The notes under the pieces are model-generated. The model saw only the letters and a program-made list of their open reading frames with translations. It did not search any database and was not told the DNA's origin. A stretch of DNA of 64,000 bases from Escherichia coli (GTDB taxonomy: Bacteria > Pseudomonadota > Gammaproteobacteria > Enterobacterales > Enterobacteriaceae), in the NCBI RefSeq assembly GCF_024502345.1, contig NZ_JALDNN010000001.1; one strand, 5' to 3'. Positions 3,985 to 19,053 of the stretch are shown piece by piece (position 1 is the stretch's first letter; each line of letters opens with the position of its first letter). The translations under genes and the position numbers were made by a program.

Positions 3985-4067
3985 CAAGTGATAGATACTC
4001 TGGTTGCGCTGGAAGTGATAATAGGAATCATTTGCTTTAACAGTTTGATTTTGCTATAATTAATACA

Positions 4068-4691
4068 GTGGCAGTCATTGCGTACTCAGCCACTGTATTA
4101 ACCCATCCTGGCTTGTTCACAGCCATCACTTTTCCTGGAATAGCAACAATGACACTTCCCCGAGACGTTCATGCGTCCCGTCAGGGCCAGCATGACTACT
4201 TATGTGGCATCTACAGCTTGATTAACACCCTCAGTTACCTTTATGACGGCAGAGTACGGCGAGAAAAATTAATGTACCGCCTGCTTAGCAGCTATAAGCG
4301 ACGATGGGATTTATTTGATCTCCTGACGCTCGGTCTGGACGAGGAACAAATGGACCACCTGATTGGTGATGTTCTCCTGAAAGGGCATTACGCCCGGCAT
4401 TATCCCCTGAATTTTCATACCCCCTTCCGTTACCGCTCCCTGCGCAGCCGACAGATACTCAGCGACATCAGCGACTGGCTGGCGTTGCCGGAGAACCAGG
4501 CGCAGCGCGTGGTGATTCTGGGCACATCCTGGCACTGGTCTGTGGTAGTCCGTACCGATGCTACCCGGCTGTTCCTGTTTGACAGCTTGGGAATACGCAG
4601 CCAGCGCAGGGATACGTTCTCCGTACAGCCGGAGCTGAAGCGCCACACGCTGCTGCCGGACGCCATCTATTTCGTCGAACGTGAGTTCTGA
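4068..4691 (+). CDS. hypothetical protein with candidate Cys/His dyad (possible papain-fold or C39-like peptidase); start uncertain
   Basis: 207-aa ORF; motifs DYLCGIYSL and SWHWSVVV resemble cysteine and histidine segments of C39-type peptidases. Weak, by-eye call. Confidence 0.4.
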   Translation: MAVIAYSATVLTHPGLFTAITFPGIATMTLPRDVHASRQGQHDYLCGIYSLINTLSYLYDGRVRREKLMYRLLSSYKRRWDLFDLLTLGLDEEQMDHLIGDVLLKGHYARHYPLNFHTPFRYRSLRSRQILSDISDWLALPENQAQRVVILGTSWHWSVVVRTDATRLFLFDSLGIRSQRRDTFSVQPELKRHTLLPDAIYFVEREF

Positions 4692-4713
4692 CCCCTGCAG
4701 AAGGAGACTGACC

Positions 4714-5202
4714 ATGACTTTTACCGCCTGCGACCAGAGCGGTTTTTACCGGACCACCGGGCCGGTGTCCCGCGAGGATATTATCCGCTTTGCCCATACG
4801 CTGCTCTCCCGCCGGTTTCGCAATCGCCGAAAAATTACGTCCTCTAATGATGTTCACCAGTGGCTGGTGCTGAAGCTGGCAGAGGACACCCGGGAGAGCT
4901 TCGGAATGATACTGCTCTCGCAGCAGCACCATCTTCTGGGCTACCACATCCTGTTCACCGGGACGCTGAACCAGACCATGGTTTACCCCCGCGAAATTGT
5001 CGCTCTGGCGCTGACGCATCATGCAGCCGCAGTGATACTGGTCCATAACCACCCAAGCGGTGAGCCTGAGCCGAGCCAGGCCGATAAACTCATTACCCAA
5101 AAAATTACCGATGCGCTTTCACTCCTTGATATCCGCGTCGTGGACCACCTTATTGTGGGTGGTGACGATGCTTACTCCTTTGCAGAACACGGCCTGCTCT
5201 GA
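4714..5202 (+). CDS. RadC-like JAB/MPN-domain protein (YeeS/YfjY/YkfG family)
   Basis: C-terminal HNHPSG...D JAMM-like motif and ...DHLIVGG...SFAEHGLL tail typical of CP4-prophage RadC-like proteins. Start at ATG 4714, preceded by AAGGAG. Confidence 0.75.
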   Translation: MTFTACDQSGFYRTTGPVSREDIIRFAHTLLSRRFRNRRKITSSNDVHQWLVLKLAEDTRESFGMILLSQQHHLLGYHILFTGTLNQTMVYPREIVALALTHHAAAVILVHNHPSGEPEPSQADKLITQKITDALSLLDIRVVDHLIVGGDDAYSFAEHGLL

Positions 5203-11922: not shown

Positions 11923-13458
11923 ATGAAGCAAGAAACGATCGTTCAAAAAATTTGGAGTCTCTGCAACATACTAAGAGGTGATGGTATCACCTATTATCAG
12001 TATGTTTCTGAACTAAGTTATTTGCTTTTTCTGAAGATTGCTCAAGAAAATGGTTCAGAAAAGCTGATACCTCAAGGCTACCGCTGGGCTGATCTTGAAT
12101 CCCATCCAGAAGCAGGATTATTAGGGTTTTATCAAGAGATGCTCACTCACTTGGGTGCGCATGTTAAAAATGAAATCATAAGAGAGATTTACGCATTCCC
12201 TACAACCGTTTTCTCCCATTCTGAAAATTTAAAAGCTGTTGTAGATGGTATTTCGAAAATAGAGTGGCACCAAGTAGGAAAAGATGGGTTTGGCGACCTC
12301 TATAGTGGTTTAATTGATAAAAGTGCTCAAGATACGCGTTCGGGAGCCGGGCAGTATTTTACTCCACGCTCTTTAGTTAACACGATAGTGAGATTGATAA
12401 AACCGAGTCTTGGCGAATTGATTCAAGATCCTGCGTCAGGAAGTGGTGGCTTCTTAGTTTCTGCTGACAGCTATATTCGAGTCAAATATTCACGAAAAGA
12501 GTATCAATTGAACCCTCCTAAATATCAAGGAGTGGAAATAGAGAAAAATACTCGTCGAATTTGCTTAATGAATACCTTTTTACATGATTTAGATGCACAC
12601 ATTATCTATGGTGATGCACTGACTGATGACGTAGCAGGGTTGGATGAAGCCGATGTAATCTTAGCCAATCCCCCTTTTGGCAATAAGGCTGGGGGACAAC
12701 GTCCTTTACGTAACGATATTCCATTCCCCAATACAAATAAGCAATTAGCTTTTTTGCAGCATATTTATTTGAAGCTTAAAGCTGGCGGTCGAGCTGCTGT
12801 AGTGGTACCCGATAATGTACTATTCGAATCTGGGGTTGGTACCGATGTACGTCGTGACTTAATGAATAAGTGCAATCTTCATACTATCTTGCGACTGCCC
12901 ACTGGTATTTTTTACGCCCAAGGTGTTAAAACCAATGTTCTGTTCTTTACTAAAGGCTCTGACAAAGATAAATATCAACAAGATAGCTGCACTGAGAACG
13001 TCTGGGTATACGATCTACGTACCAATATGCCAAGTTTTGGTAAACGTACACCCTTCGGTAATTCAGATATTGGCTTTGCGGCAGAAGATTTCGGTACAGA
13101 TCAGCACCTCGGCGCGTTCGAAAAAGTGTTCGGAGATAATCCAGACGGCACCAGCAAGCGCACCGAAGGTGAATACAGCTTTGGTGCAACAGATATTGAA
13201 ATTGATACAGAAGCAGTAGAAGAAAACCTGAATGTTGATGAACAGCTAGCCCATTCTCGCTGGCGCTACTTCAGCCGTGAGTGGATAGCCAATAATAAAG
13301 GCGATTCGCTGGATATCTCATGGTTAAAAGACAAAAAGAGTGTCGATGCGGCTGGTTTATCCGAGCCAAACGTTCTCGCTCGCGAGGCAAAAGAAGAATT
13401 AGAAGCAGCATTGAGTGAGCTGGATAGTTTATTGATCGCATTGGAAGGGGCCGAATAA
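11923..13458 (+). CDS. hsdM: Type I restriction-modification N6-adenine DNA methyltransferase subunit HsdM
   Basis: 511 aa; SAM-binding and catalytic motifs (DPASGSGGFL; ANPPFG) typical of HsdM; AT-rich codon usage. Confidence 0.9.
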   Translation: MKQETIVQKIWSLCNILRGDGITYYQYVSELSYLLFLKIAQENGSEKLIPQGYRWADLESHPEAGLLGFYQEMLTHLGAHVKNEIIREIYAFPTTVFSHSENLKAVVDGISKIEWHQVGKDGFGDLYSGLIDKSAQDTRSGAGQYFTPRSLVNTIVRLIKPSLGELIQDPASGSGGFLVSADSYIRVKYSRKEYQLNPPKYQGVEIEKNTRRICLMNTFLHDLDAHIIYGDALTDDVAGLDEADVILANPPFGNKAGGQRPLRNDIPFPNTNKQLAFLQHIYLKLKAGGRAAVVVPDNVLFESGVGTDVRRDLMNKCNLHTILRLPTGIFYAQGVKTNVLFFTKGSDKDKYQQDSCTENVWVYDLRTNMPSFGKRTPFGNSDIGFAAEDFGTDQHLGAFEKVFGDNPDGTSKRTEGEYSFGATDIEIDTEAVEENLNVDEQLAHSRWRYFSREWIANNKGDSLDISWLKDKKSVDAAGLSEPNVLAREAKEELEAALSELDSLLIALEGAE

Positions 13459-15143
13459 TGATTGAGACTTCTTTACCATGGCTGAGAGTCCAGCTCGGTG
13501 ACGTAGTTCCCTATGGTAAAACCGAAAAATGCGAATTATCTGACGTTACAGGTAACACTTGGGTACTTGAGCTCGAAGATATAGAAAAAGATAGCTCGAA
13601 GATCATACAACGGCTAGATGCAACTGCACGACCATTTAAAAGCACGAAAAATAAATTCCGTAAAGGAGATGTCCTTTACGGGAAACTGCGACCTTACTTA
13701 AATAAAGTTGTCATTGCGGACAGTTCTGGCGTTTGTTCGACTGAAATCATGCCTCTAAATGCTGAGCCATTTATTGACAATAGGTACCTCTTTTACTGGT
13801 TGAAAACTGAAGTTTTTATTGATTTTGTAAATTCTGTAAGCTACGGCGTGAATATGCCTCGACTCGGAACTAAAGATGGATTAGCTGCTCCATTTATTGT
13901 AGCTCCGCTTGCTGAGCAAAAAGTTATTGCCGATAAACTTGATACCTTGTTGGTGCAGGTGGATGCCATTAAGGCTCGCCTCGAACGCATCCCAGAAATC
14001 CTAAAAACCTTCCGCCAATCGATCCTCACCGCCGCAGTTAGTGGGAAGTTGACGGAGGGATGGCGATTAAAGAATAAACTCAGTAATGTAGTTGTAAAAC
14101 AAAATATCAATCTACCAAAATTAACCCCAAATGAACACTACCTCGAACATGTTGAAGGATGGCAATGGGTAAGACTGGGTTCTGTTGTTAGTCTAATAAA
14201 CGGCGATAGAGGAAAAAACTACCCTAATAAAAATGAATATGTTAAGGATGGAATACCGTTCATAAATACAGGGCATATTAATTCAGATGGAACACTTTCT
14301 GATGAACGCATGAATTTTATTTCCAAGGATAAGTTTGACTCCTTAAGTGGGGGAAAGACGAAATCAACAGATCTAGTTTATTGCCTCCGAGGTGCAACTA
14401 TGGGAAAAACTGCACGTGTCCACTACAAAATAGGGGCAATAGCATCCTCTCTTGTAATTATCCGACCGAGTGATTACATAGACAGAGATTTCGCATATTA
14501 TTTTCTTATTAGCCCTCCGGCTAAAGATTTAATTAATGAATTTGATAACGGATCCGCTCAGCCAAATCTATCTGCAAAGAGTTTGTCTACATACCCTTTA
14601 CAACTCCCTTCGTTTAAAGAACAAATCGAAATCGTCAGTCGCGTCGAAGAAATGTTCAACTTTTCATCTCTTGCCGAAGCAAAAGCTAAAACTGCATTAG
14701 AGCGTGTCAATAAAATTACTCAATCAATCCTAGCCAAAGCTTTCCGAGGCGAACTCACTGCAGATTGGCGCGCCGCCAACCCGGATTTAATCAGCGAAGA
14801 GAAAAGTGCTGAAGCTTTGCTGGAAAAAATTAAGGCAGAACGTGAAGCCATCGAAAAACAACCTAAGCCAACACGTTCCGTTATAAAAAAAAATACAGGT
14901 GGCCGTATGAGTAAACAGATTATCAAAGTGGTTGAAGCGCTAAAACAAGCGGGAAAACCGCTTAGTGGCCAACAATTGTTAGCTGCAGCTGGTTACCCTA
15001 GTGATAGCAGTACTGAGCAACTGGAACAGTTCTTTCTGGATATACGTGACGCTCTTACCATAGAAGAGTCCATTGTAAAGCTTGAGCGCGGTGGCGACAG
15101 TCAAGATTGGTTCGCCTTGGCTAATAATAAAGCAAAGAACTAA
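13458..15143 (+). CDS. hsdS: Type I restriction-modification specificity subunit HsdS with ~120-aa C-terminal extension
   Basis: Start ATG overlaps hsdM stop (ATGA). Two variable target-recognition regions separated by conserved helical repeats (...PLAEQKVIADKLDTL... and ...LPSFKEQIEIVSRVEEM...ILAKAFRGEL), then an extra tail. Confidence 0.85.
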   Translation: MIETSLPWLRVQLGDVVPYGKTEKCELSDVTGNTWVLELEDIEKDSSKIIQRLDATARPFKSTKNKFRKGDVLYGKLRPYLNKVVIADSSGVCSTEIMPLNAEPFIDNRYLFYWLKTEVFIDFVNSVSYGVNMPRLGTKDGLAAPFIVAPLAEQKVIADKLDTLLVQVDAIKARLERIPEILKTFRQSILTAAVSGKLTEGWRLKNKLSNVVVKQNINLPKLTPNEHYLEHVEGWQWVRLGSVVSLINGDRGKNYPNKNEYVKDGIPFINTGHINSDGTLSDERMNFISKDKFDSLSGGKTKSTDLVYCLRGATMGKTARVHYKIGAIASSLVIIRPSDYIDRDFAYYFLISPPAKDLINEFDNGSAQPNLSAKSLSTYPLQLPSFKEQIEIVSRVEEMFNFSSLAEAKAKTALERVNKITQSILAKAFRGELTADWRAANPDLISEEKSAEALLEKIKAEREAIEKQPKPTRSVIKKNTGGRMSKQIIKVVEALKQAGKPLSGQQLLAAAGYPSDSSTEQLEQFFLDIRDALTIEESIVKLERGGDSQDWFALANNKAKN

Positions 15144-15152
15144 GGACAGCCC

Positions 15153-16757
15153 ATGAAAGTCGACAAACTGCATATTCGCTCACGCTTTAAAAATCTTGAA
15201 AACGTGAAAGTGGACTTTGACGAAAACCACCTGATGACCGTTATCGTAGGCCGTAATGGTTCCGGTAAGTCCAATGTTCTAGAAGCCTTGGTTGCTATAT
15301 TTCGCAATCTTGATTTAGGTGAAGCACCAACATTTTCTTATGAGTTGGACTATCAACTAGGTGAGGAAGCCGGGGTTAAGTGGTATGACGTCAAGGTTGA
15401 TGCAGATCCAGACCGCGGAACGCTAGCAAAGCAATACCAAGTTTATGTCAAAGATAAACACGATAGCAAAGCGGATTTCAAGCTTACACCCTTCTCCAAA
15501 GTGAAACGCGATAAGAAAACCAAACAAGCAGAGTTTCTTCCTAACTTTCTATTCGCCTATTATTCCGGACCATCGGATAGATTAGAAAAATACTTTCGAA
15601 AGCATCGTGATGATTATTATCGAAACCTACTCTACAACAAGCTTGACTTGAAAGCAGATATTCGTTCTCTATTTTATGCCAAACCCTATCACAGTCAGTT
15701 TGTGCTCTTGGCATTTTTCCTGTCAGATGAAAATAGTCCTCAGCGCAAGTTTATTAAGGAGCATTTGGGTATTGAGGGATTGGACAGTATTCATTTTGTG
15801 ATGCGCCAACCTGAGTGGGCTAAGCTGAAGGGGGAATTATTCTGGGGAGCACAAGGTGTAGTTCGTCGCTTTTTGGATGAATTGATACAGCACACATTGT
15901 CACCGATAAAAGTAACTCGTCAAGAAGATACGTCGTTAACGGGTAGTTATATTCGAAATGAGTTCTTTCATCTATTTTTACCTGACGTAAACGCACTACA
16001 TGAATTTGCTAGAGATCTCAGTGCTGACGAACTGTTTAAAATGCTTGAAAGCACTCTGCTGTCAGAAATTATCTCTGAGGTTAGCATACGGGTGAAAGTA
16101 ACCAGCAGCAGGGAGCCTCTCACTTTCCGTGAACTTAGCGAAGGTGAACAACAGCTATTAACCGTATTGGGCTTACTCTGGTTCACCGGTGGTAAAGATT
16201 CCTTATTTTTACTCGACGAACCTGATACCCACCTTAATCCGTCATGGGCCGTTAAATACCTTAAATTCCTGCGTGAATTCGTACCCAATCATGAAACCAG
16301 CCATTTACTAATGGTCACACACCATCCTTTAGCTATTGCCGAGCTGAAGAAACAACAAGTACAAGTCATGTGGCGTGACGATGAAAATAATGTTCACTCA
16401 CAAGAGCCTTATATAGATCCTCGTGGCGCTGGCTTTATGGCCACACTTACTGAGATTTTTGGTCTAAATACAACACTGGATCTGGAAACCCAAAAGTTAT
16501 TGGACGATAGGAACGAACTAGCCCATATCGAAAATCGAACAGAAGATCAGAACAACCAGCTTGACCTTCTTAATGATGAGTTAAACAGACTAGGATTTTC
16601 ACTTGAAAACAGGGACCCGTTATACAGCGAGTTTCTTTTAGCATGGCAAGACCTAAGATACAGCGATAAACCACCACTAACACCGGATAAAGCGGCTCAG
16701 AGACGAGCTGCTATGAAAAATGTAATTGAGGCGCTTAAAGCTAAGAAGGGTTGCTAA
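15153..16757 (+). CDS. ABC-type (AAA_15/AAA_21-like) ATPase, Septu PtuA-like
   Basis: 534 aa; Walker A GRNGSGKSN, signature-like LSEGEQ, Walker B LFLLDEPDTHLNP, H-loop VTHHP; starts 10 bp after hsdS with AAGGA RBS. Confidence 0.75.
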   Translation: MKVDKLHIRSRFKNLENVKVDFDENHLMTVIVGRNGSGKSNVLEALVAIFRNLDLGEAPTFSYELDYQLGEEAGVKWYDVKVDADPDRGTLAKQYQVYVKDKHDSKADFKLTPFSKVKRDKKTKQAEFLPNFLFAYYSGPSDRLEKYFRKHRDDYYRNLLYNKLDLKADIRSLFYAKPYHSQFVLLAFFLSDENSPQRKFIKEHLGIEGLDSIHFVMRQPEWAKLKGELFWGAQGVVRRFLDELIQHTLSPIKVTRQEDTSLTGSYIRNEFFHLFLPDVNALHEFARDLSADELFKMLESTLLSEIISEVSIRVKVTSSREPLTFRELSEGEQQLLTVLGLLWFTGGKDSLFLLDEPDTHLNPSWAVKYLKFLREFVPNHETSHLLMVTHHPLAIAELKKQQVQVMWRDDENNVHSQEPYIDPRGAGFMATLTEIFGLNTTLDLETQKLLDDRNELAHIENRTEDQNNQLDLLNDELNRLGFSLENRDPLYSEFLLAWQDLRYSDKPPLTPDKAAQRRAAMKNVIEALKAKKGC

Positions 16758-17599
16758 TGATTTACATCAAACGAGACGCCACGCTAATTCCTGCAAAGGT
16801 ACTTGCCGTTGCCCAACGCGCGCAAGATGCTCTGGAACAGCTTCCCGCTGAGCAGAGGAAAGGTTTCATCAAGAAAAAGTCTCATATATGGAGAGGCTTT
16901 TCTAAATACCTAGCCCAAATGTCTTATGGGAAGTGCTGGTATTCAGAAGCTAAAGATGCAGGTGCAAATTTCGATGTAGATCATTTCCGACCTAAGGCTG
17001 AAGCAAAGAGGACAGAAGATTTGGTCGATGCGGATGGTTATGCGTGGCTCGCATTTGATTGGGAAAACTTCAGGCTTTCTGCTCAGAATTGTAACCGTTT
17101 AAACACAGATGAATCAGGTAACACGGTAGGAAAAGGCAGTTGGTTCCCGCTGCTAGATGGTAGCCCTAAAGCCTGCTGGGATAATCGCTGTATTAACGAT
17201 GAAAAAGTCACTTTGCTAGACCCTGTAGTTAAAGCTGACCTCACCTATATAGACTACGACGACAGCGGTAGATTTACTTCAAGTAAGCTCTGCGTTGGTA
17301 AGGCAGCATTAAGGGTTAGGCAATCTGGCATTATTTATGGCCTCAATTTGGAGAAAATGCGTGAAGCACGATTTCAGGTTATGAGGGAGGCTAAAGAACT
17401 CCTTGAAACTATTCACCAATGTGCCGAAGACTTAGACCCTCTGGGCAATGAAGCCCCCATGAGAACTATTGAACGACAAATAGAACAACTCCAATCCAGA
17501 ACCCGGGCCGATGCACCATTTAGCCGTGCAGTAAGAACACAACTGATAAAACTCGGTGCAGAGGATTACTTAATTGATCGAAGTTTGGATGCAGCCTAG
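16757..17599 (+). CDS. HNH endonuclease-domain protein, Septu PtuB-like
   Basis: ATG at 16757 overlaps the upstream stop (TAATG); HNH-type motif CWYSE...DVDHFRPK...NFRLSAQNCNRLN. Confidence 0.7.
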   Translation: MIYIKRDATLIPAKVLAVAQRAQDALEQLPAEQRKGFIKKKSHIWRGFSKYLAQMSYGKCWYSEAKDAGANFDVDHFRPKAEAKRTEDLVDADGYAWLAFDWENFRLSAQNCNRLNTDESGNTVGKGSWFPLLDGSPKACWDNRCINDEKVTLLDPVVKADLTYIDYDDSGRFTSSKLCVGKAALRVRQSGIIYGLNLEKMREARFQVMREAKELLETIHQCAEDLDPLGNEAPMRTIERQIEQLQSRTRADAPFSRAVRTQLIKLGAEDYLIDRSLDAA

Positions 17600-17770
17600 T
17601 TGTTTATCTTTCTGATAATGGGGTTGTCCGTTAGCCAACCTGATATATTGCTTAAAGGGCTTGCCCGATGAGTGAGCCTTTGACGGGGCTTGATATGAAT
17701 TTGCGTAGAAGTTTTGGTATACTGTTTAAACGATGTCTTTCAGCCCAGATTCAACTTCTTAGGAGTGATT

Positions 17771-17941
17771 ATGAGCACCCACAAAAAAACTCAGGCAAGC
17801 TACGCTAAGCCATCTCGTGCTGACATTGTTCGCTCAGTAGCAACATCTACGGCTGTTGAAACAGGGCAGTCCTCCGCGAAGATCGAAGCTTCACTTGAAG
17901 CCACGCGCAAAAAATTTGCTCATTTGCGTCTTGCGGTTTAA
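17771..17941 (+). CDS. small protein of unknown function (56 aa), convergent with the Fic gene
   Basis: ATG preceded by AGGAG RBS 5 nt upstream; 3' end overlaps the Fic stop region by 4 bp. Confidence 0.5.
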   Translation: MSTHKKTQASYAKPSRADIVRSVATSTAVETGQSSAKIEASLEATRKKFAHLRLAV

Positions 17942-18555
17942 TCCCTTCTTAATGCTTCTCGCACCCAGTGTTTCATCGGCTCATAGTCCATTGATATGCC
18001 AGCATGGATGGCCGATATATACTGAGTTTTGTTTTGCTCCCAGCTTTGATAATCCAGCGGTTTGTATCCTCCCTGAACGGCCATCACGTCGGCTAGCAGT
18101 CGCGACAGGCGTCCGTTTCCCTCTCTGAATGGATGGATAAGTATTATCTCTACATGGGTTATGGCGATAGCGGTGATGAGTTGTTCTTCGTCCATGCCGC
18201 TACACGGTGTGTATTGAGCCAGATACTTAGTGTCGAATTCGTTCAGCAGTTTTGGCACCTGCGCTGAGGGGGCAAACATAAAGCCGCCTTTGCTAATATT
18301 CACCGCTCTTTCTTGTCCAGCCCACTCGTAGATGTTACCTAACCAGCGGCGATGCCAGCTTTTTAGCATGGCTACGCTGAGCTGTCCTTCCGGGAACTGC
18401 TCTTCAAAAACAGACTGGTAGAGTTGTTCTAACAGGACAAGTTCAGCCTCATCCATCTCATCAGAAGTCGCAATCCCCAGCTTATTAGCCAAAACCTGCT
18501 CGCCAGAGTCTTTCTCATACTGGCCTTCACTGCTGGATACATGGTATCGGCTCAT
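17938..18555 (-). CDS. Fic-domain protein (putative AMP-transferase)
   Basis: 205 aa with canonical Fic motif HPFREGNGRLSRLL. Confidence 0.85.
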   Translation of the reverse strand: MSRYHVSSSEGQYEKDSGEQVLANKLGIATSDEMDEAELVLLEQLYQSVFEEQFPEGQLSVAMLKSWHRRWLGNIYEWAGQERAVNISKGGFMFAPSAQVPKLLNEFDTKYLAQYTPCSGMDEEQLITAIAITHVEIILIHPFREGNGRLSRLLADVMAVQGGYKPLDYQSWEQNKTQYISAIHAGISMDYEPMKHWVREALRRD

Positions 18556-19053
18556 GGAGATGCCCTGTGTTATTAGAAGGAGGGGAAAACAGAGAGAGTA
18601 TAACGCTGGATGAGTACAGCAAACAATATTCTTAAAATCAGATAGTTACAAAAGTGTAGGTTAAAATGTATTTTTTATTCTCTGGTGGAAAATAATCTTT
18701 AATAATCAGCATTAACACACCAATGCATCATGGGCGTATGGGCGTCGAAATTTTCTATTGCACTCATGGGGTTATGTCCGGTTCCCTGATATTAAATGGG
18801 GTGTGATGGTTTTTATTTTCGTTGTAATCACATAAGGCGCACATGATACCGGAGTTAATCATTTCAGGGGAAGAAGCGAACGGCGAGTTCTTGATGTTGG
18901 TTCCGGGAAAGATGCTGTTTTGCAGCTTTTGCGTGATGCTTATGAAGCAAGTACGCAAAATTGCGTCGGTTGAATAAACCTCCTCCTTCAGAGCCATAGT
19001 CCCCTTTCAAATTAAGTTGTAGTATAAATACACCTTAAGAGTATGGAGGCAGT

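Follow-up and report, generated by a model that had tools for sequence, protein, structure and literature searches.

Within a 64,000-nucleotide stretch of Escherichia coli DNA (contig NZ_JALDNN010000001.1 of assembly GCF_024502345.1; hereafter the window), a gene coding for a Fic-domain protein meets, tail to tail, a small open reading frame (ORF) of 56 codons. We interpret this locus as a two-gene class I Fic toxin-antitoxin (TA) module of the FicY-AntY type, and assign this interpretation a probability of roughly 85%. The convergent ORF is likely the antitoxin of the Fic protein. Three features of the FicY-AntY type are present: a Fic protein of about 205 amino acids with histidine at position 141, a small ORF located downstream in convergent orientation, and the string STAVET where AntY carries STAIET.

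A first-pass annotation of the window had proposed that the locus carries either an unregulated, toxin-like Fic or an unconventional antitoxin or antisense arrangement. The former proposal is not supported by our analysis, given the likely antitoxin and its S26TAVET31 string. The unconventional antitoxin gains support from the invariant serine and glutamate of the small protein family and from the existence of a counterpart in AntY, whereas a contribution from antisense RNA is at most possible.

The small convergent gene and its protein family

The start codon of the small gene (ATG at 17771) is preceded at a distance of 5 nucleotides by the Shine-Dalgarno sequence AGGAG, and its 3′ end overlaps that of fic by 4 bp. 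Both the strong ribosome binding site and the convergent overlap had been recognized in the first-pass annotation, and both are borne out (Table 1). The ORF is a real gene, as indicated by its homologues and by a low ratio of nonsynonymous to synonymous substitution rates (dN/dS). A word-indexed search revealed 140 homologous clusters in Enterobacterales at 73-98% identity, every one of them labelled 'hypothetical'. The dN/dS of the small gene, calculated with seven orthologues, is 0.04-0.32, with dS saturated. An exhaustive profile search yielded 141 representatives at the 50% level. Further members are named by their source as Pseudomonas, Rhodanobacter, Alcaligenaceae, Chitinibacter and Methyloprofundus.

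In an alignment of 82 family members, which share 34-69% identity with the window protein, S26, E30 and L54 are the sole invariant positions. S26 and E30 are the only invariant polar residues, and their spacing is that of the inhibitory-helix motif (S/T)xxxE(G/N) of Fic systems. Residues R21, T27, A28, T31, E39, L42 and A55 are each conserved in at least 90% of the sequences, and the family consensus reads PSxxxIxRAVASSTAIETGQ...E..L......F..L.LA. The amino-acid motif is kept at 35-45% identity despite divergence of the DNA.

A scan with the regular expression [ST]xxxE[GN] finds no match in either the Fic protein or the 56-amino-acid protein, in agreement with the first-pass annotation. However, the conclusion that no inhibitory motif is evident overlooked a variant in the small ORF, where S26TAVET31 departs from the pattern at position 6 alone (T31, followed by G32). 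A degenerate inhibitory motif, which the annotation had named as the finding that would overturn its view, is therefore present in the neighbouring ORF and not in Fic itself. Compared with the separate inhibitors of class I Fic systems, serine and glutamate are in register and invariant throughout the family, and only the threonine at position 6 deviates from glycine or asparagine. One family member (P0245) carries SSCAIEGN, which contains the canonical form SxxxEG as SCAIEG.

No Pfam, NCBIfam or PADLOC family matched the small protein when either the single sequence or the 82-member alignment was scanned. Profile searches of the PDB with the small family returned chance matches only, and the known antitoxins VbhA, YhfG and AntF were not among them. 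This result says little, because YhfG, VbhA and AntF are likewise not mutually detectable by sequence, such that a search with YhfG finds neither of the other two. The placement of S26 and E30 in a 56-amino-acid protein parallels that of S24 and E28 in YhfG, which has 55 amino acids, and in AntF.

The Fic protein and its active site

The 205-amino-acid product of fic matches the Pfam Fic family (PF02661, E=1.1e-18). Its residues H141-P-F-R-E-G-N-G-R149-L-S-R152 fit the pattern HxFx(D/E)GNGRxxR exactly, which confirms the canonical AMPylation motif reported in the first-pass annotation; together, Fic fold and motif identify the protein as a Fic/Fido AMP-transferase. The motif is invariant among orthologues. 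H141 is the catalytic residue, and R152 is the His+11 arginine that is engaged by the inhibitory glutamate in homologues. The dN/dS of fic, also determined against seven orthologues, is 0.05-0.09.

The polypeptide has no intramolecular inhibitory helix or motif, and the chain stops before the position of the class III helix. These are the characteristics of a class I Fic. The strings closest to the inhibitory motif are SVFEEQ (position 48), SGMDEE (119) and SMDYEP (188). We considered the C-terminal SMDYEP ('YEPM') as a class III helix and dropped this reading: the glutamate is not conserved (YDPM in Xenorhabdus and Pragia), and the string aligns to residue ~153 of NmFic rather than to the inhibitory helix, which we take to lie at NmFic residues 182-186. 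Membership in class II or class III was rejected since the Fic polypeptide is without an inhibitory motif. Assignment to mobile mystery protein B (TIGR02613) or to Doc was rejected as well, on the score cut-off and on the absence of the Doc-type motif HxFxDANKR.

Among solved structures, the closest in sequence is Fic-1 of Pseudomonas (8wt0_A, E=1.2e-18), and VbhT ranks second. The modelled Fic can be aligned along almost the entire length of class I FicT chains, including VbhT (194/198 residues), EcFicT (187/188) and Fic-1 (180/182). Its scores against the NCBIfam equivalogs for VbhT (71 against a cut-off of 800), EcFic (64 against 181), NmFic, SoFic and mobile mystery protein B are all far below the respective cut-offs, and thus the protein represents a distinct subfamily. 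It is also a full-length match to model PDLC04839 of the PADLOC system PDC-S04 (residues 1-203, model length 205, E=1e-101).

Structure models of the pair

We modelled the two proteins with AlphaFold2 (AF2) as two fusions, using a 30-residue Gly/Ser linker and a 76-row block alignment in which 14 rows were paired and the others contained only Fic or only the small protein. Both models are confident. The predicted local distance difference test (pLDDT) and predicted template modelling (pTM) scores are 83.4 and 0.81 for the Fic-linker-small model and 84.9 and 0.82 for the small-linker-Fic model. In both models the small protein forms two helices, at residues 16-31 (ending with E30-T31) and 35-48, with pLDDT values of 88-96, about 90.

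Full alignment to known class II and class III structures requires the small protein to be attached at the corresponding end of Fic (Table 2). When the fusion is C-terminal, Foldseek alignments extending across the linker raise TMt from 0.67 to 0.75 for EfFic and from 0.70 to 0.81 for NmFic, both of which are class III enzymes. Because fusion improves the fits to class II and class III structures, the models place the small protein where these enzymes carry their inhibitory helix.

Table 2. Changes in the fusion comparison for solved Fic structures
Structure	Class	Fusion comparison, first value	Fusion comparison, second value
FICD (4u04_A)	II	14.8 → 19.3	171 → 194
BT_2513 (3cuc_B)	II	12.8 → 18.0	168 → 196
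CdFic (4x2c_A)	II	10.7 → 15.4	149 → 178
SoFic (3zcn_A)	II	11.5 → 16.2	173 → 191
VbhT, EcFicT, Fic-1	I	unchanged	essentially unchanged
NmFic-delta8 (3se5_A, no helix)	III, truncated	13.7 → 14.3	153 → 153
8idv_B		14.5 → 10.9	169 → 149

Tail-to-tail layout, linkage and expression signals

To assemble a set of pairs, we combined look-ups of diverse small-family members with a scan in which each species was represented by one genome. The 32 distinct intact pairs so obtained are all convergent, and 29 of them share the identical 4-bp overlap. Among distant pairs, whose small proteins are ~45% identical, the overlap is 4 bp in L048 and 23 bp in L053. Another distant pair, L045, has an overlap of 17 bp and a Fic protein of 213 amino acids. 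Chromosomes of Proteus mirabilis and Aeromonas caviae carry the pair with the 4-bp overlap, and in both the small ORF is unannotated.

Four loci with a frameshifted fic (L003, L004, L040 and L042) retain an intact small gene, which is the pattern expected of an antitoxin. In two other loci (L046 and L047), the small gene faces a decayed remnant of the Fic C-terminus. The usual layout of class I Fic TA systems, with an upstream, co-transcribed antitoxin gene, does not apply, as the small gene is downstream and convergent. The region upstream of fic (18556-19050), which the first-pass annotation had flagged as a possible site of a missed antitoxin gene, contains no conserved small ORF, and the neighbours there vary between genera.

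Each gene has its own putative promoter. The extended -10 element of the small gene appears as TTGGTATAAT/TTGGTATACT in E. coli, Xenorhabdus, Rosenbergiella and Rouxiella, amid divergent upstream DNA, and as TTGATATAAT in Serratia. The -10 element of fic (TTATAnT) is invariant and is preceded by a conserved block in an alignment of 10 genera. A generic promoter scan did not call the putative fic promoter. There is no terminator-like site between or near the ends of the two genes, and the overlap region has neither an Rfam match nor unusual RNA structure (z = -0.49). Because the promoters are separate and the 3′ ends overlap, independent or antisense-type regulation of the pair is plausible.

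Table 1. Coordinates of features in the window and, where a locus name is given, in other genomes
Feature	Position	Strand	Evidence
antY-like antitoxin gene (predicted), 56 amino acids, predicted two-helix hairpin	17771..17941	+	ORF, ribosome binding site, homologues, AF2
Shine-Dalgarno AGGAG of small gene	17761..17765	+	Sequence; position conserved across upstream alignment
S-T-A-V-E-T, codons 26-31, variant of inhibitory-helix motif (S/T)xxxE(G/N)	17846..17863	+	82-sequence alignment
fic toxin gene, 205-amino-acid class I (FicT/FicY-like) Fic AMP-transferase	17938..18555	-	ORF and Pfam match
Active-site motif HPFREGNGRLSR, codons 141-152	18100..18135	-	Read from sequence
TTAA palindrome, overlapping stop codons of both genes	17938..17941	.	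Read from sequence
Putative extended -10 promoter TGGTATACT of small gene	17715..17723	+	Consensus match in upstream alignment
Putative fic promoter: -35 TTGTTT (18621-18626), 18-nt spacer, -10 TATACT (18597-18602)	18597..18626	-	
mutS 5′ remnant, first 14 codons MSAIENFDAHTPMM then divergence; island right junction (attR side)	18724..18767	-	
Type I methyltransferase	11923-13458	+	
Type I specificity subunit	13458-15143	+	
Septu-type PtuA	15153-16757	+	PADLOC E=2e-215
Septu-type PtuB	16751-17599	+	PADLOC E=1e-99
mutS-5′ repeat pair	L016:2547-2832 and 4038-4323		
mutS-5′ repeat pair	L034:2623-2833 and 4055-4265		
mutS-5′ repeat pair	L033:2400-2699 and 4433-4732		
Larger Fic with helix-turn-helix domains beside the pair	L007:5040-6092		
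Larger Fic with helix-turn-helix domains beside the pair	L010:2722-3732		
Larger Fic with helix-turn-helix domains beside the pair	L059:2194-3231		

Comparison with known Fic systems

The FicY-AntY system of Yersinia pseudotuberculosis YPIII (Lu et al. 2020, Front Microbiol 11:2084, PMC7479194) is the closest described counterpart in layout. FicY is a class I Fic with the catalytic histidine H141 and the inactive mutant H141A, and AntY is a small protein that is encoded by a downstream convergent ORF and carries S22TAIET27 (PMC7479194). FicY AMPylates Tyr106 of ParE and not GyrB; it blocks relaxation by topoisomerase IV (Topo IV), arrests the growth of E. coli and causes filamentation. AntY inhibits the AMPylation of ParE Tyr106 in vitro in a dose-dependent manner, and inhibition is complete at a FicY:AntY ratio of 1:3. 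The His6-SUMO-FicY construct is 37.44 kDa, compared with 37.14 kDa for the Fic-1 construct (PMC7479194).

The window pair shares with FicY-AntY a class I Fic of similar size (205 amino acids here) with histidine at position 141, and a small inhibitor-type gene that is downstream and convergent and has a separate promoter (putative here). It also shares the string S-T-A-[I/V]-E-T, with threonine instead of glycine or asparagine, and the consensus of the small family contains STAIET itself. The motif spans S22-T27 in AntY and S26-T31 here, reflecting 4 extra N-terminal residues, and valine replaces isoleucine.

Two details of the Yersinia report concern the naming of the genes. Supplementary primers labelled FicY/YPK_0608 encode MTKKTVH... 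and ...VGLAR*, and the latter C-terminus is nearer to that of the small family (..L.LAR) than to that of the Fic family described here (..ALRRD), so the primer label may be swapped. In addition, the main text terms antY both 'convergent' and 'divergently transcribed' (PMC7479194).

The closest solved complex is Fic-1-AntF of Pseudomonas bijieensis 2P24 (PDB 8WT0, PMC13327609). AntF is a two-helix hairpin whose S24 and E28 contact R146 (His+11) of Fic-1, to which R152 of the window protein is equivalent. The Fic-1-AntF complex also deAMPylates GyrB, an activity that depends on E28 of AntF (PMC13327609) and has been shown for this complex only. Fic-1 prefers GyrB. The antF gene is upstream of fic-1 in one operon, whereas the small gene here is downstream and convergent, and AntF carries a canonical motif and has no detectable sequence similarity to the small protein.

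The founding class I Fic TA systems, VbhT-VbhA of Bartonella and EcFicT-YhfG/EcFicA of E. coli K-12, likewise have upstream, co-transcribed antitoxin genes. Their motifs are canonical (SQRLEG and SRRLEG), unlike STAVET. The active site of EcFicT is degenerate, whereas that of the Fic protein here is fully canonical. Class II and class III enzymes, including FICD/HYPE, SoFic and CdFic as well as NmFic and EfFic, have the Fic core in common with the window protein; however, they carry the inhibitory helix in the same polypeptide, at its N- or C-terminus, rather than in a separate gene product.

Several points weigh against our assignment. The inhibition experiment was carried out with the Yersinia homologues and not with this protein pair, and the choice of ParE or GyrB as target would be extrapolated from FicY. 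The link to FicY (ACA66911) and AntY (ACA66912) is made by description, namely H141, size, motif and layout, rather than by alignment, and a synthetic query built from the primers of PMC7479194 and the family consensus returned no Yersinia protein. The small family is without detectable sequence similarity to VbhA, YhfG or AntF, and position 6 of its motif is threonine rather than glycine or asparagine. The docking seen in the AF2 models is a prediction, and the contact between E30 and R152 is inferred rather than seen in coordinates. Finally, one distant member of the small family (L051/L052) adjoins a zeta-toxin-like gene and not a Fic gene. This member, at L051:3001-3920 and in L052, is convergent to a 56-amino-acid ORF and a zeta-toxin-like P-loop protein, beside a type I HsdR gene; it may be an orphaned or re-partnered antitoxin.

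Association with islands inserted at mutS

The two genes are the final pair of an integrative island whose insertion site is codon 14/15 of mutS, and the island ends at 18723/18724. This conclusion is drawn because a 5′ remnant of mutS lies to the right of the pair and, in the collinear strain ET665, an intact mutS and a 428-amino-acid integrase lie ~19.7 kb to its left. The placement at an island edge, as given in the first-pass annotation, is thereby upheld. Beginning at 18724, the DNA to the right is the usual mutS-ygbA intergenic sequence of E. coli. It occurs in 5,419 of 5,426 E. coli genomes, of which almost all lack this fic; typical genomes match the window only from 18724 rightwards, with mutS annotated under the match. 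We know of no description of islands that target the 5′ end of mutS.

The pair is carried by 13 of the 5,426 complete E. coli genomes, and a 5′ remnant of fic is found in 26 more. A mutS remnant is also located upstream of fic in many other genera, and no more than 3 kb separates mutS itself from the pair in Serratia, Xenorhabdus and Pragia, as is also the case for at least 11 of 31 species genomes. In Buttiauxella, an Enterobacter sp. and L033, direct repeats of the mutS promoter/5′ region enclose fic and the small gene and nothing else. These repeats are 211-300 nucleotides long and 97-99% identical.

To the left of the pair, a cluster resembling a type I restriction-modification (RM) system is present in each of the five genomes examined, which are ET665, PEC122, MB06233, OW1E2 and the window. 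In the window, this cluster (11923-17599) consists of type I methyltransferase and specificity genes followed by PtuA and PtuB instead of HsdR, and looks like a hybrid of methyltransferase/specificity and ATPase/HNH defence genes. A complete type I RM system occupies the corresponding place in other E. coli strains.

Proposed mechanism and alternative explanations

By analogy with the solved and characterized homologues, and consistent with the models, the small protein would fold as a two-helix hairpin and dock its first helix over the ATP site of Fic. E30, together with S26, would engage R152 and force ATP into a non-productive pose, thereby blocking AMPylation. Free Fic would AMPylate a conserved tyrosine in the ATPase domain of ParE, a subunit of Topo IV, and possibly of GyrB, such that decatenation stops and the cells filament and cease to grow. 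More speculatively, the complex may also remove AMP, as Fic-1-AntF does. Separate transcription of the two genes, together with their overlapping 3′ ends, could allow the toxin:antitoxin ratio to be set independently, with a possible antisense contribution. The pair probably serves as an addiction or stabilizing module of the mutS-inserted island. The mechanism is ordinary; the gene layout is unusual among Fic TA systems but has already been published for FicY-AntY.

The alternative with the most merit, which overlaps our assignment as a TA module and which we regard as doubtful rather than far-fetched, is that the pair is a bifunctional AMPylase/deAMPylase switch for the reversible tuning of Topo IV or gyrase, as proposed for Fic-1-AntF. 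E30 is invariant in the small family and corresponds to the residue of AntF on which deAMPylation of GyrB depends (PMC13327609), the two proteins show a degree of conservation like that of housekeeping genes, and in many cases the pair is fixed beside mutS. However, deAMPylation has been demonstrated for Fic-1-AntF and not for FicY-AntY or the pair described here. The frequent decay of fic with retention of the small gene, and the patchy occurrence of the pair in E. coli, fit a selfish TA module better than a core regulator.

A second alternative concerns the role of the pair and is compatible with the TA mechanism. A phage infection might free Fic from the small protein, and the toxin would then shut down host or phage DNA topology in an abortive response. 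The full-length match to PDC-S04 and the location beside the methyltransferase/specificity and PtuA/PtuB cluster, or beside a complete type I RM system in other strains, are consistent with such a function. PDC-S04 is defined as a single-gene candidate, with the small partner gene outside its model set. However, this system is a computational candidate only, and the single native-host test of it that we found saw no defence (bioRxiv 10.1101/2024.12.20.629700). In Serratia, Xenorhabdus, Pragia and the minimal cassettes, moreover, the pair is by itself beside mutS, unaccompanied by other defence genes. We found no copies on phages or true plasmids; three 'plasmid' matches are mislabelled chromosomes of 4-5 Mb in PLSDB. 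We consider a role in phage defence to be unlikely.

Control by RNA alone, in which the convergent transcript acts as an antisense RNA on fic mRNA in the manner of a type I or type III system and the ORF is incidental, appears very unlikely. The overlapping 3′ ends, the lack of a terminator-like site near them, the promoter-like sequence of each gene and the conservation of the overlap are features that such a system might exhibit. However, conservation is at the protein level, as seen from the dN/dS of the small gene at saturated dS and from a motif that is kept while the DNA has diverged. The length of the overlap varies (4, 17 or 23 bp) while the protein motif is constant, the overlap has no structured RNA or Rfam match, and the AntY protein alone inhibits FicY in vitro (PMC7479194). 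We attach next to no probability to an unregulated orphan toxin with an unrelated or spurious small ORF, given that binding and inhibition by the small protein have already been shown for the Yersinia homologue, even though neither window protein carries the strict motif and the small protein matches no Pfam, NCBIfam or PADLOC family.

A broader proposal can be offered only tentatively, as we judge it improbable in its entirety. The tail-to-tail overlap, which extends from Aeromonas and Proteus to E. coli, might itself be a working part of the system, with convergent promoters adding antisense or interference control to give a hybrid RNA-plus-protein TA module. The pair might anchor the family of islands at mutS codon 14/15 as an addiction module and survive island loss as a minimal cassette of 1.4-2 kb between mutS repeats of 200-300 bp. 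The SxxxE-T family might then mark a large hidden set of Fic TA systems that surveys based on class I/II/III motifs have missed.

The published basic mechanism is left unchanged by our findings. They add the breadth of an antitoxin family that has no model, the invariance of its serine and glutamate with threonine at position 6, the conservation of the tail-to-tail overlap over large evolutionary distances, and the association with mutS-targeting islands. The small partner is labelled 'hypothetical' or goes uncalled, as in Proteus and Aeromonas. Because it has no family model, such Fic proteins give the impression of unregulated toxins or of defence candidates that consist of a single gene, such as PDC-S04. 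Recognition of the SxxxE-T family, which comprises at least 141 clusters at the 50% identity level, would put right the assignment of Fic classes in many genomes. The pair also offers a natural type II TA system with separate convergent genes that allows the toxin:antitoxin ratio to be studied independently of an operon, and its place at the end of mutS-inserted islands raises the question of whether mutS expression is altered.

Additional observations

A second, larger Fic protein (336-350 amino acids) with C-terminal helix-turn-helix domains adjoins the pair in Xenorhabdus, Pragia/Limnobaculum and Aeromonas (Table 1). The PLSDB entries NZ_OL790811.1 and NZ_AP026896.1 (L058 and L059) are 4-5 Mb in length and tagged as plasmids, and are evidently chromosomes.

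Strain B27, one of the 26 genomes with a fic remnant, was examined individually. Its remnant (L056:5001-5291) corresponds to the 5′ third of a related fic with 88% nucleotide identity, and is located in another island near ychF, where it adjoins a decayed integrase and copies of the insertion sequences IS100 and IS1 and is without the small gene.

Between the mutS start and ygbA, the window carries a short 'hypothetical protein' ORF (18843-18977, + strand) of 44 amino acids (44-59 amino acids in RefSeq). This ORF is conserved in nearly all E. coli and is unrelated to the Fic module.

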